In this document: positions 21,300-39,901 of the stretch, piece by piece
Layout: each line of letters begins with the position of its first letter
Numbering within the stretch: position 1 is the stretch's first letter
From: a virus
Taxonomy: Duplodnaviria; Caudoviricetes
Length of the DNA stretch: 64,000 nucleotides
Direction: 5' to 3' (one strand)
Virus record (IMG/VR): IMGVR_UViG_3300021431_000096
Coordinates: 1-64,000 of that record
Made by a program: the position numbers and the translations under genes
Notes under the pieces: model-generated
The model's database searches: none
Seen by the model: only the letters and a program-made list of their open reading frames with translations
Told to the model about the DNA's origin: nothing

Positions 21300-22310
21300 A
21301 TGGCAACCAATCTTAAACTCTATTCGGGTTCCAAGCTGATAGGCAGTCCTGTTGTATTCGAGGTGACGGCGCACAACCTTGATGCCAGTGCGACGTTCCA
21401 CCAGGTGCGCATTGTGCTGACTGCCAACGCCTCGGTGTTCGAGTTCTCGCAGCCCGCTTCCAACGGCGAGAAGTTGTACTTCGACATCAGCAGCGCCTTC
21501 CGCGCACTCGCCGAGAAGTATGAGTACACCGCAGCAGGCATCAACCCTATTCCTAACGGCGGCTATCCCAGTTACGGCAATGCCGCCGGTGACAATATCA
21601 AGGCTTGCGACGACTATCTGCTCAACGGTGTGGAGCACCGTGGCGAGCATGAGGTGACCGGTACGCTCGCAGGACCGTACTACCAAGGCTATCTTACCGA
21701 TCGCGAGCGGTTGCTATATGGCACGAATGTCCAGGAGTTGCCGTCGCAGTGGAGCCGTAAGCCTAAGTCGGCATCGCCGGAGATTTGCTTTATCGGCAAT
21801 CCGCACTTGCATGCCGGAGCGTTCGGCAATAATCCGTCGGTATCATCTACCCAAGTCACCAAGGGCATGCAGACCATCGGCGGACATCAGATTTATGGTA
21901 TCAACCAGCCTGCTGACGGCTTCGAGCTGCGCTTCATCAACTCCCTCGGCGTTCACGAGAATGTCTTCATCACCTGTCTGCGCCAGAGCGAGGTGAACAT
22001 CAAGAACGATTTCTACACCATTGCAAGGCTGGAAACGTTGAAGAAATTCTCCCGTGGCGTCAGTGTGAAGCAGAACGACTACGAGACGTGGAAGATGTCG
22101 AGCGGCCCCGTTGACCGCGCCTGGCAGCAGTGGTGGCTCCATGAGCCGCTGATGGCAAAGTGGGCGTGGCTCAACGTCGACAGCCAGTGGCTGCCCGTGC
22201 ATATCGTCCCAGAGGAGACTACCGTCGGCATCGACCGCGCCAAGGGCAACCTGCTCGAAGTGCAGTTCACCCTCCGCTTCGACATCAATGGATCGCCGTT
22301 CAAATCATAA
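21300..22310 (+). CDS. Tail-associated structural protein
   Basis: FINSLGV.E...SSGP....W..WW..E.L.....W......W.PV motif typical of Bacteroidota phage tail-tip genes. Confidence 0.5.
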   Translation: MATNLKLYSGSKLIGSPVVFEVTAHNLDASATFHQVRIVLTANASVFEFSQPASNGEKLYFDISSAFRALAEKYEYTAAGINPIPNGGYPSYGNAAGDNIKACDDYLLNGVEHRGEHEVTGTLAGPYYQGYLTDRERLLYGTNVQELPSQWSRKPKSASPEICFIGNPHLHAGAFGNNPSVSSTQVTKGMQTIGGHQIYGINQPADGFELRFINSLGVHENVFITCLRQSEVNIKNDFYTIARLETLKKFSRGVSVKQNDYETWKMSSGPVDRAWQQWWLHEPLMAKWAWLNVDSQWLPVHIVPEETTVGIDRAKGNLLEVQFTLRFDINGSPFKS

Positions 22311-22370
22311 AGCTCAAAGTTCAAAGCTCAAAGTTCAAAGCTCAAAGTTCAAAGCTCAAAGTTCAAAGTT
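22305..22370 (+). repeat. Heptamer tandem array (TCAAAG[C/T])n
   Basis: About 9 units directly upstream of ATG 22372; similar arrays at 21270-21298 and 30681-30717. Confidence 0.85.
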
Positions 22371-22371
22371 T

Positions 22372-25300
22372 ATGGCAGTCACGATAACAACCGCAGCGAA
22401 TTATTGGATAGCACCCAACGCCCTCACCATCACGCTCAATGCGCTTGGCGAGGCTAACCGCATACAGGCCAGCGTGGCCAGCGGCGCAGTCATTATGGTA
22501 TATATGCGAGGCATCAAACCCGCAGACCCGTCAGACCCCGACACGGCCCTGAACGGCGACGGGCTTGAGTTTGACAACGGTCACAACTACCGCCGCTGGC
22601 CGCTCAGCATCTCGCCAACGTACTTCAATTCAAACGACGAGAAGTACATCTATGTCGCCATCCCGCGAAAGGCGAGTGTCGGCACTGACGCCGTGGTAGT
22701 GTTCCCGTCGCAGAAACTCGACATCTATGGTTACTCGATCAAGGAGGTGCCGAAGCGCAACGCCCGTGGTCAGATGATTGACGAGGACGGCTACCCGACC
22801 GATGACATCACCAAGGCTGTGAAGGAGGAGGAACAGGACGAGCAGCTCGGTACCGACGACTACTGGTACGTCTGGCTGCAGGGCATCATCACCGAGACCA
22901 ACGGCACGAGCCTGCGCGACTGGGACGCCCACTGCGAGAGCGGCTACCTCGACTCCGACGAGGCCATCTCATCACTGGAGACAGACTGGTACAAATGGGA
23001 TCCGATTTCGGGCACGGTGACGTTCCTGAAAGAAATCTTTATGGACGCTGGCAGCATCTTCAGCAATCTGAAGGCGAAGGTGGCCGAGATTGCCGACCTG
23101 AACGTGACCAACCTGCTCGACGCCATCAAGGCAAAGATTGACGATATCCGTTCGCATAACTTCGAGGAGGGACTGACCGACGGCAACGGCTTCCGTCTGA
23201 CCGCCGACAACGGCGAGGGAAACAGCGAACTGGAGGTGGATTTTTTGAAAGTCCGTAAGAAGGCTACGTTCATGGAACTCGAAATCCGCAAAGAGACGTT
23301 TGTCGGCGGCAACCAGAACTATTCGCCTGCCGGATCGGTCATCTACCGCGTGGAATACCTCGACGTGAACAACGAACCGCTCGGTTATAAGACAAAGAAA
23401 GTGCCCTGGCTGTTGAAGGGATTCGCCTTCCTTGGCGGTCCGTTTGCCGGAGCCTACCATCTCGCCACGAAGCGCCGCGTCTATGTCGGCATGACCGACG
23501 AGGAGTGGCCGAAGTGCCACCATTTCCGCTGCTATCTGATTTCCGACGACGGCACCACCGCCACCCGCAACTGGTGGCGCTACGGCGACCAGGCCAAGTG
23601 CCAGAGTTTCAATAAAGCCGCGTCGGTGCAGAGCAAGCACGATAATACTTATAACTCTGGTACGAGCGTCGTGCCCGATCCCGCCACGCCGATGGCGGAG
23701 AAGACCTACGCCTCGCAGCCCGTGGAGACCTCTTACTGGTGGCGCATGGTGACGAACACGGGCTCGAAATTGCTGGAGGACGGCTATGTGTATGACTTCG
23801 TGGACTTCCCTTACGAGGGCTGGGATGTGGTCATCGGCGGCACCCGTCACCGCTATTCAGAGATAGAGAAGAAAGGTTTCCGCGACCCAGGCAGCGGCAT
23901 GCCTATGGCTGGCGACACGCTCGTCTGCATCGGCAACCGCATTGAGGAAGACCGCATGAACCTGATCAATCTCAGCACGACGGGTGACGATAACGACCCG
24001 CCGTCGATACGTGGCTACCGTGGCATCCATAATTTCAAGATGGAGAGGAGCAATCAGGTATTCAAGATTTCGCCGGAGGAGACACTGTTCCGCTCGAAGC
24101 GGTTCTATCTGCTGAATGACGACGACGAAGCCTTCCGTGTGCCGCTCGAAAGGGGAGAGTGGGAGATGGGTCAGCGCTACCACTGGTACGACCGTGTGTC
24201 GTGGGACGGCAGCATCTGGCTCTGCGTCGTGGCCGACGAATATGTATGGCAGGACGCTAACGGCAACGACTACCGCGAACTCGACGTGACCGACATCGAC
24301 CAGGGCGAAGGCTCGTTCACCTACTACGCCTACGACCGTCAGATTCCCGACCTCGACGAGGACGGTCGCGAGGACGGCGACCTCGTATATAGCGGCACAG
24401 ACCACTACTATGCCACGGGCAAAGTCGGTTCGACTACTGTCTATAAGATAAAGGTATATACCTACTTGGAGCCTTCCGACGAGCACAACGCCGTCTGGCT
24501 CTGCGAGGTCAGCAAGGGTACGGAGATTACCCGCAGCGAGATTCACTATGCCGCCTCGCTCGACGGTATCAACCATCCCGACGACGAGAGCGATGACTGG
24601 AAGGACACCATCGAGGCAACGGGCGTGCTGGCAGGTCAGTACCTGTGGACGCGCACCACCACCTACTACCGCGACAAAAACGACCCCGACCGCGAGCCGA
24701 CGCGGACGTATAGCGTTGCCCGCTGGGGCATCGACGGCGACGGCATCAGCGAGATTGACTCCTACTATACCTGTATGTTGGAGGAAGTCAACGACATGGC
24801 CACGTATGAGAAGACCCACACCGTGTCGTGGTACTATACCTTTGAATCGGCCATTGCCGCCACGGGCAAGACCATCGGCGAGTTGCAGGGTTGGTATATT
24901 TGGGAGAAGACTCAAATCGTCTATGACATGGCACCTGCTCCCGATGGCAGCGCCCGTCCGAAGCCCGACCTGGTTAACTACCGCGTCAGCCGTATCGGTC
25001 AGGACGGCCAGATCGGGCAGGAGGAATACTACTGCCTGCGTGAGTACGACACCTACGAAAAGGCGTTCCCGCCGTCGTTCGACTGGGCGGCACCGTTCGA
25101 CGTGGGCATCCAGTGGTACAACCAGCGCAACCCCGCCGCTGACGACTGGAGGCTGTTCAACAGCGACAGCTGGGTGGATAAGATTTGCACAGAGCAGACG
25201 AAACAGTATGACCCGTGGAAGCAGACCACGCGGCACCCGAACTGTCCCGTATGGTCGCCGATTATGCCTGCTTACGACGAGAACAAACCGACGTTTAAGT

Positions 25301-28300
25301 TTCTGTGGAACTTCGAGCAGCGCGTCGATGGCATGGGTACGCAGTACGCCACGAAGCCCATCTGCATCGGCAACCATGCCCGTGGCATCAAGGGTGTGAT
25401 AGAGTTCTATGCCCTGTCCGCCTCGCAGACGCCGAAGAGCGCCTCGATACTCATTCCGCAGGACCTCTACGACAAGAACGGCTACGGTGTGATTCCCACC
25501 AGCGGCTTCACTGACAAGCAGGTGTGGAGCGACGAGAAGTACGACCGCGCCCCGACGGAGCAGCTGCCGTATCAGTGGAACTGGACACGGACGCTCTACG
25601 ACGTGGCCGATGCTAACGGCAAGACCTATGAGGATCATTATCATGTCTCGTCGGTGAAAGGCACCAAGGGTGAGGACGGTGCCGGTGTGGAGTATATCTA
25701 CTGCCGCACAGCCGATGCAAACCCTCCGCAGGGATATCTGAACCATAATGGTAACGTGACAGGGTGGGGACATGTCACAGAGAACGAGGGCAAGACTATC
25801 AATGGCGTTTGGGTTCCGCGCTGCAGGTATGAGGATGACTTTGTGCCTGATGCGAAGACCGTCAGCGGCGTCACCTACACGTGGACCGACAATCCGATGG
25901 GCATTACGCAGGAATATCCCTATGAGTGGGTGTGTGAGCGTAAGAGTGAGTCGTACCTGCTCAACGGCAAGTTCTCCGGCGGACATATCTGGGGAGAGTT
26001 CTCCGCGCCGAAGGAGCGGTCGAAATGGGGCTACAACGGCGAGGACGGCGACGGCACGGAGTATGTGTTCATGCGGACGAGCAAGGACGTGGCCCCGGCG
26101 TTTAGCACCAACGACGTGATTTCCGGCTACACCAGCGACTACAAGAGCGACGAGTGGCGGCCATATATCAATAATAAGGATGCCTGCGGAGCGGAGAGCA
26201 ACCGCACGACCGACGACCCGAAGGGCACCTCCCGCGACTGGCCCTACGAGTGGGTGGCCAAGCGCAACAAGGCCGCTGCCGCCTCGAAGACCGCCGGCGA
26301 GACGCAGGGACAGCGCCAGTGGAAGTCTTATTATGAATGCACTGCAGACAACTCGCACAAGATGTCGAAATGGAGCACCTACTCGACGCTCAGGCTCGAC
26401 ATCGACAACGAGATGGACATGATACCGACGGAGAGCGACAACAAAATCAGTGCCGCCCGCACGGTGCAGACCGTCGTGCATTTCTACGACGGCTCGACGG
26501 AGGTGAACATCAGTGCCGCCACGCTCAGCGTCACGGGAGGCCCCGCCGATAGCATCGCCACTTACAGCCATGCCGCTCAGGGCTATGGACAGAAACTGTC
26601 GTGGTCGTTCATCGCCGGCAAGACGATGGCCGACGCCTATAACATCACCATAGGCTACACCTACAACGGCATCACCTACACGGCGGTATTCACCGTCTCT
26701 GCGTCGAAGGGACAGCGCATCTATCAGCTGCGCCCGAGCCATTCGTCGCTCATCTGCAAGCGCAACACGAACAACACACTGGCCGATCCAGACCCGTTGT
26801 CGCTGATTATCGACCGCATCGACGGCAACAGCACGACACAAATCAGCAGTCCCACAGCGGATGCCACCTATAAGGACGGCGATGTGACGCTGACTGTGAA
26901 ATATAGCACCACGTCGATGCCGACTTCTGCAAGCAGCGGCTCGTCGTGGCCCAAGGCGAACAGCGTGCAGATATCAGGGTCTGGCAGCGTCACGAACGTC
27001 TATCTCGCCCTGTTCAATAGCAGCGGCGTGCTCCTCGACCGCGAGACAGTCCCGGTAGTTCGCGACGGCAAGAACGGCGAGAACACCGTCCGTCTCGACC
27101 TCGACAACGAGAACGACTCGATGCTCTATACGGGTGGCGGCACGCTCGTCAGCGGCAATGTCACTTCGACCGCCTATATGTTCGACGGTGCGAGCGACGT
27201 GTCTGGTTCTACCACGTTCTCCATCAGCGCGAGGGAGGGTTGCACCAGCAGTCAGGCCACCATCAGCGGTCGTGTCATCACCGTGACGGGCATCAACGCG
27301 GCTACGGCAAAAGTCACCGTGCAGGGTGTCTATAAGGACGGCAACAACAATACACATACGAAGACTGCCGTGCTGACGATCAAGAAAATCGTGGACGGCG
27401 ACAAGTACGACCTCGTGATATCGCCGAACGCCATTCCCTACAACGCCACCACGGACACGCCTGCAGAGACCACCGTGTCAATCAAGGTCTACAAGACGTC
27501 GGTGAACAGCAGCGGCGGCGCTACCCGCGCTCTCTCCGCCCCGCCATCCGGCTATAGCGTCTTTGCAGGCAGCATGGCGCTCGACGCCTCGTCGACGGGC
27601 ACCTACTCGACGAAGACGGACAACAGCGAGATAAGTTCGCTGACCGTGAAGATTGCCAAAAGTGCCACCTCTACGGACATCCTCGACATCGAGACCATCC
27701 CCATCGCGAAGGTTGAGAACGGCAAGAGCGTCACGAAGAAGAGCGAGAGCTACCGATATGCGACGAACAGTACCGGCACGCGGCCTGCGGCATCATCGTC
27801 CGACTGGCAGACCACGAAGCCGACGCTGCAGCAGGGCTACTGGCTCTATACCGAGACTACCATCACCTGGAGCGACAACTCGACCACCGTGCTCTACACC
27901 GACGAGCGCAATCCGAACGATGGCGTGGCCGGTCAGGACATCATCGTCGATGGCTCGACCGAGATGAAGTACTACGTGGGCGACTCGAACACGTCGCACC
28001 CTGCCGAGTCGAGCTCAGATTGGAAGGACCTGTCGCAGGTTACGCAGACGCAGGGCAAGTGGCTCTGGTCGAAGGCCACCACCTACTACCGCAAGGCTTC
28101 GTCAGCAGCGGGCAGCAAGGATGCCGGCCATTCGGTGAACTACAACGTGAGCTACATCTCGAAGGACGGTGCCGCAGGTCGTGCCGTAACAGGAATCACG
28201 GAATACTACAAGGCCACCAGCAGCAACGCCGAGATGCCTGTGCCTACGACCGACAGCGGATGGAGCACCAACCCGAACGTGTCGAACTGGGGCGCCACCG

Positions 28301-29766
28301 ACAAGTACCTGTGGAACTACGAGAAGGTGACATACAGCAGCGGCACGACCGTGGAGCGCACCAAGCCGCAGATCGTGGCCATCTGGACGAAGGACGGCAA
28401 GGGTATCGACTCCATCACCAATTATTATAAAATCACCTCGTCGGCCACGGCTCCGTCAAGACCATCCACCGACGGCGGCGACGGCTGGGATGATGACCCG
28501 ACAGCCCCCGGCGCAGGCGAATACCTCTGGAACTACGAGAAAGTGACCTACACCGACGGCTCCGTCTTCCGCTCAGAAGTCCAACTCATCGGACATGTGG
28601 GAAAGGACGGTCAGAATGGCAAAGACGGTAAAGACGGCAAGGATGGCAAGGATGGCAAAGACGGTCAGGACGGAGCAGCAGGCCACGTAGGCCGCTGGTA
28701 CTACTATGCAGGCGAGTGGAATGCCACCACGAAGTATAAGTTCGAGGCGACCAAGGCGCCCTACGTGAAGCGCGGCAGCAACTTCTATATGCTGGACTGC
28801 GCTGCATGGCCGTCCACGCAGCAGTCGAGCTCGACGTACACCAGCAAGGACGAAGACCCGGCCGACTCGGACTTCAACAAGGGCAACCCGTGGAGCCAGA
28901 TGACAGCCGTGTTCAAGTACATCATCACCGAGGCTATCTTTTCTGGTTATGCACATCTCGGCTCGTTCATCATCAACGGCGACTGGCTGATCTCACAGAG
29001 CGGCACCATGTACGGCACCGACGGCTCCGCACACACAATAGGGCCTGGTACTTCGTGGAACTATCCCGGCGGCTCGTACACGATTTACAACTCATACGAG
29101 AAGTTCGACCCGTCGTATCCGAACTCGTCGAAGTCTGGCGTCGTCAACTTCGCCCCGAACTATGCCGTGGACGGCAAGACGGGCAAGACGTATCAGAACG
29201 ATGCGTATGTGAAGGGCACGATAAGTGCCGACGGTTCGTTCATTGCAAAGAACGCCAATGGTGCCGGTGTGGTGATGGTCAACGGTGGCACCACATCCAC
29301 CACGACCAACGAGACGGGCGTTACAGTCCTTGATGCGGCAGGTATCTATTCGCGTACGAATCAAGACGGATTCCGCCTGAACGCCAGCAATGGTCTGCAG
29401 CGATACGACTCGCGTAACGGATGGGGTCCGATGTTTGCCGGGCGCCGCGTGGACAAGGTAACTGCAGCAAAGACGCTCGACGATACCTATGACTTCATTA
29501 TCGCCGACCCGTCGAACTATTCCGGCGGTTTCACCATCACCCTGCCATACAATCCGCCCGACGGAAAAATCATCACTATACAGTGTACGAGTTATGATCG
29601 TTGGGTGGACGTACAGCGGAACACGATTGGCTACATCAAGGTGCTCGGACAGGCATCGGGACTGCCAGCCAATACCTTCGTGAAGGTGAGGATATCCAAC
29701 TTCGAGCGAGGCGAGTTCGTCGCTTTCGGCGGCAACTGGTATGCAACGAAGTCGGCTTGGGATTAA
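22372..29766 (+). CDS. Large tail fibre / central tail protein (~2464 aa)
   Basis: SELEVDFLKVRKKATFMELEIR motif; many YLW.R/YEKVTY repeats; LDLDNE.D repeats; collagen-like GKD repeats at 28600-28680. Start moved past the heptamer array. Confidence 0.8.
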   Translation: MAVTITTAANYWIAPNALTITLNALGEANRIQASVASGAVIMVYMRGIKPADPSDPDTALNGDGLEFDNGHNYRRWPLSISPTYFNSNDEKYIYVAIPRKASVGTDAVVVFPSQKLDIYGYSIKEVPKRNARGQMIDEDGYPTDDITKAVKEEEQDEQLGTDDYWYVWLQGIITETNGTSLRDWDAHCESGYLDSDEAISSLETDWYKWDPISGTVTFLKEIFMDAGSIFSNLKAKVAEIADLNVTNLLDAIKAKIDDIRSHNFEEGLTDGNGFRLTADNGEGNSELEVDFLKVRKKATFMELEIRKETFVGGNQNYSPAGSVIYRVEYLDVNNEPLGYKTKKVPWLLKGFAFLGGPFAGAYHLATKRRVYVGMTDEEWPKCHHFRCYLISDDGTTATRNWWRYGDQAKCQSFNKAASVQSKHDNTYNSGTSVVPDPATPMAEKTYASQPVETSYWWRMVTNTGSKLLEDGYVYDFVDFPYEGWDVVIGGTRHRYSEIEKKGFRDPGSGMPMAGDTLVCIGNRIEEDRMNLINLSTTGDDNDPPSIRGYRGIHNFKMERSNQVFKISPEETLFRSKRFYLLNDDDEAFRVPLERGEWEMGQRYHWYDRVSWDGSIWLCVVADEYVWQDANGNDYRELDVTDIDQGEGSFTYYAYDRQIPDLDEDGREDGDLVYSGTDHYYATGKVGSTTVYKIKVYTYLEPSDEHNAVWLCEVSKGTEITRSEIHYAASLDGINHPDDESDDWKDTIEATGVLAGQYLWTRTTTYYRDKNDPDREPTRTYSVARWGIDGDGISEIDSYYTCMLEEVNDMATYEKTHTVSWYYTFESAIAATGKTIGELQGWYIWEKTQIVYDMAPAPDGSARPKPDLVNYRVSRIGQDGQIGQEEYYCLREYDTYEKAFPPSFDWAAPFDVGIQWYNQRNPAADDWRLFNSDSWVDKICTEQTKQYDPWKQTTRHPNCPVWSPIMPAYDENKPTFKFLWNFEQRVDGMGTQYATKPICIGNHARGIKGVIEFYALSASQTPKSASILIPQDLYDKNGYGVIPTSGFTDKQVWSDEKYDRAPTEQLPYQWNWTRTLYDVADANGKTYEDHYHVSSVKGTKGEDGAGVEYIYCRTADANPPQGYLNHNGNVTGWGHVTENEGKTINGVWVPRCRYEDDFVPDAKTVSGVTYTWTDNPMGITQEYPYEWVCERKSESYLLNGKFSGGHIWGEFSAPKERSKWGYNGEDGDGTEYVFMRTSKDVAPAFSTNDVISGYTSDYKSDEWRPYINNKDACGAESNRTTDDPKGTSRDWPYEWVAKRNKAAAASKTAGETQGQRQWKSYYECTADNSHKMSKWSTYSTLRLDIDNEMDMIPTESDNKISAARTVQTVVHFYDGSTEVNISAATLSVTGGPADSIATYSHAAQGYGQKLSWSFIAGKTMADAYNITIGYTYNGITYTAVFTVSASKGQRIYQLRPSHSSLICKRNTNNTLADPDPLSLIIDRIDGNSTTQISSPTADATYKDGDVTLTVKYSTTSMPTSASSGSSWPKANSVQISGSGSVTNVYLALFNSSGVLLDRETVPVVRDGKNGENTVRLDLDNENDSMLYTGGGTLVSGNVTSTAYMFDGASDVSGSTTFSISAREGCTSSQATISGRVITVTGINAATAKVTVQGVYKDGNNNTHTKTAVLTIKKIVDGDKYDLVISPNAIPYNATTDTPAETTVSIKVYKTSVNSSGGATRALSAPPSGYSVFAGSMALDASSTGTYSTKTDNSEISSLTVKIAKSATSTDILDIETIPIAKVENGKSVTKKSESYRYATNSTGTRPAASSSDWQTTKPTLQQGYWLYTETTITWSDNSTTVLYTDERNPNDGVAGQDIIVDGSTEMKYYVGDSNTSHPAESSSDWKDLSQVTQTQGKWLWSKATTYYRKASSAAGSKDAGHSVNYNVSYISKDGAAGRAVTGITEYYKATSSNAEMPVPTTDSGWSTNPNVSNWGATDKYLWNYEKVTYSSGTTVERTKPQIVAIWTKDGKGIDSITNYYKITSSATAPSRPSTDGGDGWDDDPTAPGAGEYLWNYEKVTYTDGSVFRSEVQLIGHVGKDGQNGKDGKDGKDGKDGKDGQDGAAGHVGRWYYYAGEWNATTKYKFEATKAPYVKRGSNFYMLDCAAWPSTQQSSSTYTSKDEDPADSDFNKGNPWSQMTAVFKYIITEAIFSGYAHLGSFIINGDWLISQSGTMYGTDGSAHTIGPGTSWNYPGGSYTIYNSYEKFDPSYPNSSKSGVVNFAPNYAVDGKTGKTYQNDAYVKGTISADGSFIAKNANGAGVVMVNGGTTSTTTNETGVTVLDAAGIYSRTNQDGFRLNASNGLQRYDSRNGWGPMFAGRRVDKVTAAKTLDDTYDFIIADPSNYSGGFTITLPYNPPDGKIITIQCTSYDRWVDVQRNTIGYIKVLGQASGLPANTFVKVRISNFERGEFVAFGGNWYATKSAWD

Positions 29767-35875: not shown

Positions 35876-37285
35876 ATGGCACAGGAATTTGACATTTTGA
35901 AAATCGGAGGCGTTCCCATCAACGCCTGCGACGTCGTGGCACGCCAGCGCATCGACGAGCTGGCAGCAGCCAGCGGCGTGACCTACTTCGGCCGCGTGTG
36001 GAACCTCCAGAACTCCACGCCCGTGGCCGACCACTACATCGGCAACCTCGCCTTCGGACAGCAGCTGCCCGAATGGCTCGGACTGGGCTGCTACATCGTG
36101 AAGAACGACCACAGCCGTAAGAAGCTGATGGCCGACAACCATTATAAGTACGAGAACGGTGCTCCCGCCAAACTGGATGGTACAGAAGGCCATTACCAGT
36201 GGGGATGGGGCAAGAAGTTCTATATCGTGGTGAAACAGCAGGGCGACGAGCTGGCGCTGATTATTGCCAAGGGCAAGATTCCCGGCGAGGTGAACTACAC
36301 CATTCCCGTGGCCTCTGAGTCTGCGGCTGGATGGGCTACGATGGAACGCAGCACTGGTAAGCTGGTAAGCTACATCAATATGGGTGCCGACTACCGTGGT
36401 GGTAACAACGACAGCAGTCGTGACGGACAGTATAACACTATGCTCGGACGCCCTGCATCTTCTATGACTACCAACGCATTCCTGACTGCCGCCCGCCTGA
36501 ATGGCGACGGATGGCTGGGTGCAAGTATGCGCTTTGACTGCGTGAAGGCCATACTCTTCTACGTCATCTTCGGTAACCTGAACGTACAGGCCGCCTATAA
36601 TGCCAATAAGGACGCCAATGGACTGTATCAGGGCGGACTTGGTACTGGTCCTACCAATGCAGGCGGTTGGTGGGGAGCCAACTGGGACTATTATCCCGTG
36701 TTCCCACTGAGTGCAGGTATAGAGTTGGGCGACCGTTGTGGCGTGTTCAACTATGTAGTGAAGGACGGTGAGGACAATACGTTGCAGACCATGCAGGGTA
36801 CCTGTTTCTTCGGATTGAAGAACGGCATGGGCGGTATCATGTGGAAGATGATGACCGACGAGTTGCTGCAGTGTAATGAGGATAAGAGTCAGACGCACCT
36901 GATAGCCGAGAAGATTTGTAAGGTGGACGGCAATTACACCTACAGCATCGGCAACAGCGCTACGGGCTTTAAGGTTGGTGGTACCACACCTGCTTATGAG
37001 AGTGCTGCATGGAACAGTATCAGCCGCGTGCTCTTCAAGAATCTTGAGCTGCTGCCTATCGGTGTCGGTCAGACCAATCGCTTCAGCGATGATTATTACA
37101 ATCCTGCTATAACCTCCGGGTTCCGTCTTGTGCTCCGTTCCGGCTCTCTGGACCATGGTGGTCGGTGTGGCCTTTCGTTTGTCCTTGGTTACATTGGTGT
37201 CGGGAATGCCTATGCGTACGGCGGGTCGTCGCTCTGCGAAGTGACCGAGGAGTGGAGCGTGGACGGAGAGTACGTCGAGGTCTAA
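35876..37285 (+). CDS. DGR target protein (probable receptor-binding protein with C-terminal variable region)
   Basis: Carries the VR at 37114-37234; the G.R...R.G.......CG........G.......G..LC pattern fits C-type-lectin/FGE-like DGR targets. Confidence 0.9.
   Translation: MAQEFDILKIGGVPINACDVVARQRIDELAAASGVTYFGRVWNLQNSTPVADHYIGNLAFGQQLPEWLGLGCYIVKNDHSRKKLMADNHYKYENGAPAKLDGTEGHYQWGWGKKFYIVVKQQGDELALIIAKGKIPGEVNYTIPVASESAAGWATMERSTGKLVSYINMGADYRGGNNDSSRDGQYNTMLGRPASSMTTNAFLTAARLNGDGWLGASMRFDCVKAILFYVIFGNLNVQAAYNANKDANGLYQGGLGTGPTNAGGWWGANWDYYPVFPLSAGIELGDRCGVFNYVVKDGEDNTLQTMQGTCFFGLKNGMGGIMWKMMTDELLQCNEDKSQTHLIAEKICKVDGNYTYSIGNSATGFKVGGTTPAYESAAWNSISRVLFKNLELLPIGVGQTNRFSDDYYNPAITSGFRLVLRSGSLDHGGRCGLSFVLGYIGVGNAYAYGGSSLCEVTEEWSVDGEYVEV
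37114..37234 (+). repeat. DGR variable repeat (VR)
   Basis: 121-bp match to TR with 15 mismatches, all at TR adenines. Confidence 0.97.
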
Positions 37286-37342
37286 GGATTACGATGTGGT
37301 CAATGTGTTCAACAGGTGACAAAGGTTAACAAAAAGGGGGCA

Positions 37343-37372
37343 AGCACGCCCCGCCCCAAAGCGGGGCGTGCT
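37343..37372 (+). other. GC-rich perfect hairpin/cruciform between VR and TR
   Basis: AGCACGCCCCGC-CCCAAA-GCGGGGCGTGCT, extendable by AAGGGG/CCCCTT. Confidence 0.7.
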
Positions 37373-37411
37373 CCCCTTCGCTCTAAAAAACATGGTAGCT
37401 CTCGTTAAAGA

Positions 37412-37532
37412 CTCCGGGTTCCGTCTTGTGATCCGTTCCGGCAATCTGAACAATGGTGGTCAGTGTGGCCTTTCGATTGTCAATGGTAACAATGGTGTCG
37501 GGAATGCCAATGCGAACAACGGGTCGTCGCTC
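37412..37532 (+). ncRNA. DGR template repeat (TR)
   Basis: Ten AAY codons plus ATC, CAG and ATT in the VR frame (23 adenines); lies just upstream of the RT. Confidence 0.97.
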
Positions 37533-37687
37533 ATCTTTATTGGAATATTCAAAAATATACATTGGACGACGAGAGTGCCACGCCTCATGGCGGAAAATAA
37601 ACTGGGGGTGCAAGTGTTGGTAGGCTCACGCGGAAGGACCGTAACAGAGTGCGAAGACAGGAGCATCTAATGAATAAAGCAGAATAG

Positions 37688-39220
37688 ATGAAGACGATAA
37701 AACGACTATCGGACGACATAGCGACTGTCAATAATTTCATCGAAGCGCATGAGAACTACACAGAGACAAAGCCTTATAGGACTGATATCCGTGAGTTTGA
37801 AAGCAACTTCACTGCAAACATCAGAACACTTCTTAGAGCATATAACCTTGGCAACTGGGTGCCACCAGAATACGAAGAGCGTACTATCGTAGAACATAAC
37901 AAGCTACGGAAACTTGGTGTTTATCCTGCGGCAGAGCACAATATAGAATGGGCAGCACTGAATTATCTGGAGAAACCGTTGACCGATACATACATCCGCA
38001 ACTCTTGCGCCTGCGTCAGAGGACGAGGACAGAATGACTTTATTGATATCATATCCCGCGCCATGCGCAACAGTTATGATGACACACGCTACGGCGTGCA
38101 ACTGGATGCGCACCACTACTTTCAACTGATAGATCACAATATCATAGAGTGTGTGCTTGAAAGGAAGATCAAGGACGAAAGGTTGATGCGGTTACTGCAC
38201 AATATCCTGAGTTCTTTCATGAACGGATTGGTGCTCGGTACTAAACTCAGCCAGATAGAGGCGAACTTCCAACTGTCGCCCTTTGACCACGGAGCACAAT
38301 CATTATGGGGTGTTCGCAACGATGTGGAGAAGATGTGTTACTGGCGCCGAAGATATGTTGACTGGTGCATAGCAACCGTGCGAACCAAGGAACAGGCCGA
38401 GGAGCTCGCCAAGGGCGTGCAGTACCTGAACGCGAAGTTCGACAGCCTTGTGGACAAGGGCGTGTTCTATGCCAGGTTTGCCGACAACATCATCATGCTC
38501 TCTGGAGACAAGGCATTCTTGCATATCGTCACCGAAATTGCCATTATGGTGCTGGCACGGGACTATCACTATCAAACTAACAAGTCGTGGAATGTCCGAC
38601 CTGTTGAACCCGATGGCATAGACATCTGCGGTTATGTATTACATCATTATTATAGAAAAGTAAGAAAACGCATTAAACAAGATTTATGGAGAGAGGTCAT
38701 ACAGCTTCGCAAAAAAGGGAAATCGCCAGAGGAAATACGCCTGGCATGTGCCTCGCGTATTGGGTGGCTAACGCATGGCGACTGTAGGAACCTTCTCAGG
38801 AAAATGAATGTCAATATGGAAGAACGGCTTGGCGATAAGATTAAGAAAAAGAGAATAATGATTCCTTTTGAAGGTATGACGAAAGAACAGCGACGTTCTA
38901 TCGAGGACTTTCTTTGTTATACTGACGAAGACGAAAATGATAAGATGATTCTCCTTTTGGAATATACTGTCGGCAAGTCGATATTTCCAGGAAAAGAAAA
39001 CCGTGCTGCGTTAAGGTTCAAAACTTCAAACGGAATCATTCGTCATCCCGATGGTACCACAGAGCATCAGTGGAGTGAAGAGGAACTTTACGCATGGACT
39101 GGTTCACAAATACTGATAGAACAGATGTTGCAGGAGTTCTCACCAGAAGATTTGCCTGCGCCGACGGCCATTCACGAAAACACGAACAAATACGGAAAGA
39201 AATATTATAAGTTCACTTAA
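37688..39220 (+). CDS. DGR reverse transcriptase with a C-terminal extension
   Basis: SCACVRGRG, QLDAHHYFQLIDH, GLVLGTKLSQ..AN, ARFADN, GIDICGY; adjacent to TR/VR. Confidence 0.93.
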   Translation: MKTIKRLSDDIATVNNFIEAHENYTETKPYRTDIREFESNFTANIRTLLRAYNLGNWVPPEYEERTIVEHNKLRKLGVYPAAEHNIEWAALNYLEKPLTDTYIRNSCACVRGRGQNDFIDIISRAMRNSYDDTRYGVQLDAHHYFQLIDHNIIECVLERKIKDERLMRLLHNILSSFMNGLVLGTKLSQIEANFQLSPFDHGAQSLWGVRNDVEKMCYWRRRYVDWCIATVRTKEQAEELAKGVQYLNAKFDSLVDKGVFYARFADNIIMLSGDKAFLHIVTEIAIMVLARDYHYQTNKSWNVRPVEPDGIDICGYVLHHYYRKVRKRIKQDLWREVIQLRKKGKSPEEIRLACASRIGWLTHGDCRNLLRKMNVNMEERLGDKIKKKRIMIPFEGMTKEQRRSIEDFLCYTDEDENDKMILLLEYTVGKSIFPGKENRAALRFKTSNGIIRHPDGTTEHQWSEEELYAWTGSQILIEQMLQEFSPEDLPAPTAIHENTNKYGKKYYKFT

Positions 39221-39247
39221 TATTCATCATTTTAAAATGTTTTGATT

Positions 39248-39901
39248 ATGAAAACAAGAAGTTATCAGTCAGGTTTGACTTACGAAAAGTATGATCGCGA
39301 CCACATTGCAATCTACTTCAACGAGACAACAAAGGAAGTGCCTTCGGGTAATGATAGGGAATCGACACAGGTAGAGTATGAATACGATACTGTGCTTGTG
39401 GCTGCTGAGACTCCTTCAGTAGAGGCATTTGCAGCAGCCCTTGTGGCTAATGGCATAGCCTTGCTTGATGCACAGGCTATTGCTACGGGTATTATCTTTG
39501 CTTCAATCCAAAAGGGGCAGTTGGAGGGTGATGAGCTTGCTGCAGCCAAGGAGATGGTACGAGCCAAGATTACTGCCTACGACTCGTCATCGGCAGTTAA
39601 TGAGTTTACCTATCAGGGAACGCCGATGTGGCTTGACAAAGACACACGTGCAGGTTTGATGCTGCGACTGAATGCCGAACAGGCTGGTGGTCACGAAAAC
39701 ACAACGTTATGGTATGGCACACAATCCTTCTCGTTGCCTGTAAGCAGTGCTATACAGATGCTTACCGCATTGGAACTTTACGCATCGGCTTGCTTCGACA
39801 TGACGGAAGAGCACAAAGCCGCTGTTGATGCCAAACACACGGTTAACACCGTATTGGCATACGATTATACGCAAGGCTATCCCGAAAAGCTGGCTTTCTA
39901 A
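39248..39901 (+). CDS. DUF4376-like tail-fibre-associated protein
   Basis: I.AYDSS.AVNEF...G..MWLDK.TR.GL...L..LELYA..CFD.T..HKAAV...YDYT.GYPEKL.F. Confidence 0.75.
   Translation: MKTRSYQSGLTYEKYDRDHIAIYFNETTKEVPSGNDRESTQVEYEYDTVLVAAETPSVEAFAAALVANGIALLDAQAIATGIIFASIQKGQLEGDELAAAKEMVRAKITAYDSSSAVNEFTYQGTPMWLDKDTRAGLMLRLNAEQAGGHENTTLWYGTQSFSLPVSSAIQMLTALELYASACFDMTEEHKAAVDAKHTVNTVLAYDYTQGYPEKLAF

Follow-up and report, generated by a model that had tools for sequence, protein, structure and literature searches.

The closest described relative of the enzyme considered here is bRT, the reverse transcriptase (RT) of the BPP-1 DGR, which is its best match in the PDB by both sequence and fold. The catalytic residues of bRT are D138, D215 and D216, and in the active complex Mg2+ lies 2.2 and 2.3 Å from D138 and D215, the only two distances given in the figure legend (bioRxiv 10.1101/2023.10.23.563531). 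According to DiGReF, both aspartates of the YxDD motif are 100% conserved in DGR RTs (PMC3521204). Variants of the active site are not discussed by Wu et al. 2018 (where neither 'YxDD' nor 'aspartate' occurs; PMC5758913), by Roux et al. 2021 (no 'motif', 'aspartate' or 'catalytic') or in a recent study of Bacteroides DGRs (no 'YMDD', 'YxDD', 'aspartate' or 'catalytic'; bioRxiv 10.1101/2024.11.15.621889), and a literature search that left most subscription journals outside its reach found no report of xDN in a DGR RT. A second line of background concerns RNA. The motifs RT-1 to RT-19 are RT-associated RNAs of unknown role, of which Weinberg et al. tie only RT-10 to a DGR, as the spacer between TR and RT in BPP-1; that others act similarly is a speculation of those authors (PMC5737381).

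The window, that is, the whole 64,000-nt stretch of DNA analysed here, comes from a 93,359-bp IMG/VR virus record with a completeness of about 95%. It carries a complete DGR cassette on the + strand (35876-39220), in which a tail-protein gene with a VR is followed by a TR, a structured RNA and an RT (Table 1). The RT has FADN where a DGR RT is expected to have YxDD with both aspartates; several other features by which a DGR is recognised are present, namely an adenine-specific TR/VR pair, a VR at the 3' end of the target, a TR near the RT and SQ in motif B. We argue below that this is very probably the RT of a complete and recently active DGR, in a 93-kb phage probably of Bacteroidales, and that FADN is a working variant characteristic of its clade.

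The VR ends 51 nt before the stop codon of the 469-aa tail-protein gene, and the TR lies upstream of the RT at a distance of 156 nt. TR and VR differ at 15 positions, and all 15 are adenines in the TR (hypergeometric P = 9e-14), as the initial annotation of this DNA had it. The identity of the target protein rests on PHROG and tblastn matches to tail proteins; by tblastn it is about 25% identical to the RT-adjacent tail proteins of crAss-like phages and of Bacteroides phage Versailles. There is one RT and one VR in the whole 93-kb record. A megablast comparison of the DGR locus with GenBank phages gave no match, nor did a tblastn search with a candidate capsid protein of the phage, and most of its large ORFs are without a PHROG match. 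Upstream of the tail genes lies an ORF of 2,492 aa (22288-29766, + strand). Directly 3' of the RT, at 39242-39901, is a gene for a 219-aa protein with a C-terminal DUF4376 / tail-fibre (phrog_1807) domain, and the position of this gene is kept in close relatives.

Table 1. Features of the DGR cassette and of related loci (positions are those of the window unless a locus is named)
Feature	Position	Strand	Basis or remark
DGR target gene, 469 aa, tail or receptor-binding protein with C-terminal VR	35876..37285	+	ORF; phrog_5302 tail protein, 2.4e-44
VR, 121 nt	37114..37234	+	88% identity to TR
TR, 121 nt, 23 adenines	37412..37532	+	translation rich in Asn (AAY) codons
Structured RNA between TR and RT start codon	37576..37686	+	match just under the gathering score of Rfam RT-17 (RF03020)
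DGR reverse transcriptase, 510 aa	37688..39220	+	phrog_1423 RT, 2e-57; AF2 pLDDT 92.7
Motif A catalytic Asp D140 (QLDAHHYF), equivalent of bRT D138	38105..38107	+	invariant in alignment A3
Motif B, GTKLSQIEAN, with DGR hallmark SQ (S188, Q189)	38237..38266	+	
Palm insertion, ~49 aa (~N211-G258), between motifs B and C	38318..38461	+	predicted three helices
Motif C, FADN within ARFADNII (TTT GCC GAC AAC)	38477..38488	+	
C-terminal extension, aa 376-510, ~135 aa, absent from bRT	38813..39217	+	bRT alignments stop at ~375
RT-17 in relatives	L011:5870-5967; L058-L089, just upstream of position 1501		
FVDG RTs	L004:6001-7641; L055:3060-4700; L056:5001-6659		
xDN RTs without the insertion	L020:3177-4499; P0133, P0144, P0150, P0152, P0157, P0176		

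Avd is an accessory protein of many, but not all, DGRs. A search for it (PF05635) returned nothing at E <= 1 anywhere in the 93-kb record, and there is no free-standing ORF between VR and RT, where the short ORFs overlap the TR. To judge from its genes, the element appears to be Avd-less; a divergent helper may be encoded elsewhere in the genome.

Translation confirms the reading and the coordinates (38477-38488) given for motif C in the initial annotation, with Asn in place of the second Asp. D266 is the kept catalytic Asp, corresponding to bRT D215, and N267 (38486-38488) replaces the residue that is D216 in bRT. The same annotation had described an insertion of about 60 aa before this motif. 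The insertion is there, and it is shorter: F264 follows S188 by 76 residues, where about 100 ordinary DGR RTs have 27, so the extra segment amounts to about 49 aa, and RTs that lack it show a 50-column gap at this point of the alignment. A family profile aligned with bRT (PDB 8UB7) matches positions 2-202 to bRT 3-201 and positions 259-374 to bRT 208-320, and sets RFADN on RYMDD of bRT. D140, D266, R74 and the SQ motif are invariant in the family alignment (A3). The Pfam family RVT_1 (PF00078) does not match the RT even at E <= 10, and a Pfam scan of the protein gives only a chance-level hit to R3H (E 0.14). A PF00078 match is among the precomputed annotations of about half of the homologues, and it is described as 'weak' or 'faint' where its context was retrieved.

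An AlphaFold2 model built from an alignment of 83 sequences (mean pLDDT 92.7) places residues 1-378 on bRT (8ub7_A) with a Z score of 33.8 and an rmsd of 2.4 Å over 323 of the 328 bRT residues; group II intron RTs are the next-best fold matches, at Z ~28. The residues left unmatched in this superposition are those of the insertion, for which helices are predicted at 213-229, 234-241 and 244-257 with pLDDT mostly 96-97 (block means 93-97). Could the alignment nevertheless be misleading, and the true catalytic pair lie elsewhere, for example in SYDD at residues 129-132 or in an acidic residue supplied by the insertion? A YDD does occur just upstream of motif A, and all members of the FADN clade have D212 in the insertion. 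SYDD, however, is already lost in a homologue that is 88% identical, and the state of position 212 is independent of whether the Asp was lost, because Asn stands there in insertion-bearing members with DD (P0099, P0101, P0105 and P0108) as well as in a second DN clade. Moreover, the HMM and structural alignments both set RFADN on RYMDD of bRT, and we consider a misplaced motif very improbable. In the separate matter of a compensating acidic residue, D212 (independent of the DD/DN state) and SYDD 129-132 (unconserved) were rejected as candidates and none was found.

The C-terminal extension has no counterpart in bRT. Modelled alone it gives a beta-rich barrel (pLDDT 81.6), whose matches in the PDB are mostly OB folds of SSB and PriB at Z 4-5.6, the best (Z 5.6) being a domain of RuvBL2. 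The likeness of the modelled domain to OB folds is weak, lying below significance, and may serve as a lead only. A protein atlas search with the domain returned only unnamed viral clusters, below 0.9. The domain is conserved in the clade, and some DD RTs that lack the insertion (P0125, P0204 and P0213) have it too. According to Wu et al. (PMC5758913), the C-terminus is extended by sequence of unknown nature in roughly 20% of DGR RTs.

How widely is FADN shared? A search of 5.8 billion proteins yielded 95 relatives of the RT, and every family member at 37-88% identity that covers the region has both FADN and the insertion (P0001-P0085, P0091 and P0092; about 90). RFADN is likewise present in 33 of 33 related IMG/VR contigs, and xDN in all 32 loci from GTDB species genomes, which were found with a narrower alignment (A5). 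The titles of 31 of these 32 name Bacteroidales or its families or genera; the carriers include Prevotella, Alistipes, Phocaeicola, Duncaniella, Parabacteroides, Muribaculaceae, Rikenellaceae and the cultured Lepagella muris NM04_E33. Taken from these relatives, the host of the window phage is probably a member of Bacteroidales. The FADN RT of the remaining locus, of the kind found in Bacteroidales phages, is on a 2.9-kb contig (L042, JBAZIG010000228.1; coverage 0.88) binned as Candidatus Paceibacterota, and this contig is probably mis-binned. Codons for the Asn of motif C in the clade include AAC as well as AAT. In five members at a greater distance (35-39% identity) the motif is FVDG, the second Asp being replaced by a Gly with the codon GGT, GGC or GGG.

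Scanning 1.8 billion cluster representatives without a profile brought in deeper relatives. Some of them combine the insertion with a canonical pair (FADD, YADD, LADD or FVDD), others combine it with FVDN, FMDN or YSDN, and seven DGR RTs of ordinary length, which lack the insertion, carry xDN as YMDN, YCDN or YNDN. The Q of SQ is replaced by P, T or A in several other DN lineages with or without the insertion (P0157 and P0176; P0104, P0114, P0129 and P0145); the FADN clade keeps it. A FastTree tree was made with motif C and the insertion columns removed. On this quick tree, whose sample is biased towards the query, the insertion-bearing RTs form one group (support 99) with DD members at its base, the FADN clade (support 99) lies within that group and itself contains the FVDN and FVDG members. 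Since the basal insertion-bearing relatives keep DD, the insertion is older than the change from D to N. Motif C must have changed state at least 10 times on this tree, so loss of the second Asp is a recurrent event among DGR RTs.

In a comparison of the RT gene with that of L022, whose RT is 81% identical, pN is 0.12 and pS 0.73; dS is saturated, and dN/dS comes to about 0.05. By this measure of codon change the gene is under strong purifying selection. These results bear on the second of two readings offered in the initial annotation, in which FADN is a private null mutation or the RT was inactivated after its last event, so that the 15 adenine-specific changes are relics of an earlier DD enzyme. 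Inactivated DGR RTs beside clean, adenine-only VR/TR pairs are indeed known (DiGReF, PMC3521204). The reading has a negligible probability here: FADN is found in every clade member down to 37% identity, close homologues thus carrying FADN and not the DD that a private mutation would predict, dN/dS is about 0.05, and, as described next, otherwise identical contigs with the same RT have different VRs. Taken together, clade-wide FADN, purifying selection and VR variation refute a private null and make a dead enzyme very unlikely.

Five public contigs encode the exact RT protein of the window. One of them (L006) is identical to the window. Another (L007) differs from it at 14 positions in 11,091 nt and a third (L010) at 15 positions in 6,045 nt, and every one of these differences lies within the 121-nt VR. 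Among the four VR alleles there are 23 variable columns, of which 21 are TR adenines and 2 are TR guanines. A similar picture emerges for a FADN RT that is 65% identical (P0011): a comparison of the two contigs L001 and L002 over 9,966 positions shows 16 differences, of which 13 fall in the VR, and 12 of these 13 are at TR adenines. Such VR-confined differences among contigs with identical RTs are evidence for ongoing mutagenic retrohoming. One contig (L009) has no TR/VR pair because its assembly jumps from VR to TR (2689-2809), with the 298 nt between them missing, and the target gene runs on into sequence derived from the TR. The repeat pair seems to have collapsed during assembly, and the join was treated as an artefact.

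Across the wider family, TR-VR mismatches fall at TR adenines in 336 of 340 cases in 30 viral loci and in 279 of 309 cases in 25 genome loci. The adenine fraction is low in L031 (12/24), L043 (11/16) and L045 (13/18), and these elements with many non-A mismatches may be decaying. A cultured mouse-gut isolate, Lepagella muris NM04_E33 (L033, NZ_SRYB01000003.1), has a FADN DGR in which 11 of 11 mismatches are at adenines. Other states of motif C are also found beside TR/VR pairs: next to three different FVDG RTs all mismatches are at A (14/14, 15/15 and 9/9), an unrelated YMDN RT without the insertion (L020) has a pair with 14 of 15 mismatches at A, and genome-derived FMDN and FVDN loci have TR/VR pairs as well; the contigs L015 (FVDN) and L019 (FMDN) extend too little upstream to reach such a pair. 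The copy in Prevotella (L011:8663-10002; also L012-L014) sits in a prophage-like region; directly 3' of it come an integrase-like gene and a tRNA, and beyond these lie host genes.

Conservation of both xDN and the insertion among homologues is thus the outcome of the alignment that the initial annotation had proposed, and its first reading, FADN as a functional variant of an RT clade of Bacteroidota phages, is the one supported by the comparison of sequences: FADN is clade-wide, the gene is under strong purifying selection, differences are confined to the VR, and 31 of 32 genome loci have titles that place them in Bacteroidales.

The 111 nt separating the TR from the RT start score 39.1 bits (E 2e-6) against Rfam RT-17 (RF03020), slightly less than the gathering score of 40.4. 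At the same position, 17 of 20 related viral loci score 47-73 bits, and L011, L001 and L021 likewise exceed the gathering score; the match is 67.6 bits in the Prevotella prophage locus and 46.1 bits in a relative with FADD plus the insertion. Because of this placement between TR and RT start, and of its recurrence in 17 of 20 viral relatives, RT-17 is probably the spacer or priming RNA of the clade, the counterpart of the BPP-1 spacer (Sp/RT-10).

This bears on a different account of the VR changes, in which the FADN protein is dead or nearly so and serves as an RNA-binding scaffold, while the mutagenic cDNA is supplied in trans by a second DGR RT, encoded by the host or by a prophage in the same cell. 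Bacteroides genomes are rich in DGRs (bioRxiv 10.1101/2024.11.15.621889), and in classical retroviral RT mutagenesis, as cited in PMC2148107, all three aspartates were needed. Against this, the sole RT of the phage lies directly downstream of its own TR and RT-17 RNA, RT-17 accompanies the window RT clade in 17 of 20 viral loci, and bRT is almost wholly enveloped by its own Sp RNA, with many essential contacts (bioRxiv 10.1101/2023.10.23.563531); given that dependence of bRT on its own Sp RNA, use of the RNA in trans by an unrelated RT is unlikely. Nor would a mere scaffold be expected to keep D140, D266, R74 and SQ invariant, and the clade, spread across many host genera, has always kept its own RT. 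We regard synthesis in trans as improbable and infer that the window RT would itself be the polymerase.

How might such a DGR work? With FADN as a working variant, the phage would transcribe the TR together with the downstream RT-17 RNA, the RT would copy the TR into cDNA with misincorporation opposite template adenines, and the cDNA would replace the VR at the 3' end of the tail-protein gene. In the history of the clade, the three-helix insertion of ~49 aa would have been gained first, with the second Asp changing later to Asn and, in one subclade, to Gly. D140 and D266 would carry the chemistry, and N267, in whose place the FVDG enzymes would have nothing, would be supporting only; a slower enzyme would perhaps suffice for a cDNA of roughly 120-200 nt. 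Catalysis by two carboxylates is suggested by the Mg2+ distances in bRT, by Ty1 D211N and by RNA polymerases with Asn. The D211N mutant of Ty1 RT, altered in the second Asp of YXDD, polymerises with a preference for Mn2+; to be counted against the analogy, its kpol is down 223-fold and transposition is blocked (PMC2148107). In Birnaviridae and Mononegavirales (GDNQ), the polymerases naturally have Asn at the second position of motif C (PMC4634563). In the light of Ty1 D211N and of these natural ADN and GDN RNA polymerases, the premise of the initial annotation that RTs normally need both aspartates of YxDD was too strong. By analogy, the change to Asn presumably brings altered kinetics or metal preference.

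A bolder proposal is that the third catalytic carboxylate of RTs is dispensable in nature and that its change is not neutral drift but an adaptive retuning of metal preference, speed or fidelity, tied to the insertion, the OB-like domain, RT-17 and the absence of Avd. We hold this only as a speculative possibility, with the odds clearly against it; from sequence, an adaptive change and a merely tolerated one are indistinguishable.

DGR surveys and textbooks treat both aspartates of YxDD as invariant and essential, and yet a large and abundant clade of DGRs in gut and rumen phages is without the second and gives clear indications of continuing diversification at adenines. The combination of an altered catalytic motif, a palm insertion, a C-terminal domain, an RNA of its own and no detected Avd includes, in xDN, a feature that appears new to the literature searched. 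With Avd apparently absent, its own RT-17 RNA, the palm insertion and the C-terminal domain, the clade may represent a second, distinct DGR ribonucleoprotein architecture. For annotation, RVT_1 misses the window RT, and tools or curators requiring YxDD could call such DGRs dead. For enzymology, these would be RTs that naturally work with two carboxylates and can be set against N-to-D revertants in metal use, rate and fidelity, and Lepagella muris NM04_E33 is a cultured carrier that may serve for experiments.

The locus resembles the BPP-1 DGR in its order (target with VR, TR, structured RNA, RT) and in adenine-specific mutagenesis, and its RT resembles bRT (PDB 8UB7-8UBF) in fold, in the motif A Asp, in the fingertip R74, in SQ and in the first Asp of motif C. 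The two enzymes differ in motif C itself, which is YMDD (D215, D216) in bRT and FADN in the window RT, and in the region between motifs B and C, where a 6-residue loop of bRT faces about 49 extra residues. bRT, at 328 aa, needs a separate Avd pentamer, whereas the window RT has a 135-aa C-terminal domain and no Avd was found in its record; and the RNA between TR and RT is RT-10 in BPP-1 and matches RT-17 here, so that a motif published without a role is found in the DGR spacer position of this clade. In the gut phages Hankyphage p00, cr50_1, cr10_1 and Bacteroides phage Versailles, the tail protein that the DGR diversifies is homologous to that of the window (25% identity). The DGR RTs of Bacteroides and crAss-like phages are about 25% identical to the window RT over residues 1-373, with tblastn matches that stop before the C-terminal domain; MT835875.1 (36% identity) is the only GenBank phage record that covers the full length of the RT. 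Ordinary DGR RTs, of those examined, differ from the window RT in having the 27-residue spacing between motifs B and C together with DD. Ty1 D211N has the same substitution at the same position as N267 and keeps template-directed polymerisation in vitro, but it is a laboratory mutant that blocks transposition, while the Asn of the window clade is natural and conserved and retrohoming has evidently been completed, to judge from the VRs. The polymerases of Birnaviridae and Mononegavirales, finally, share the right-hand fold and are functional with a natural Asn at the second Asp of motif C; they are RNA polymerases of eukaryotic RNA viruses and not RTs, and so offer an analogy only.
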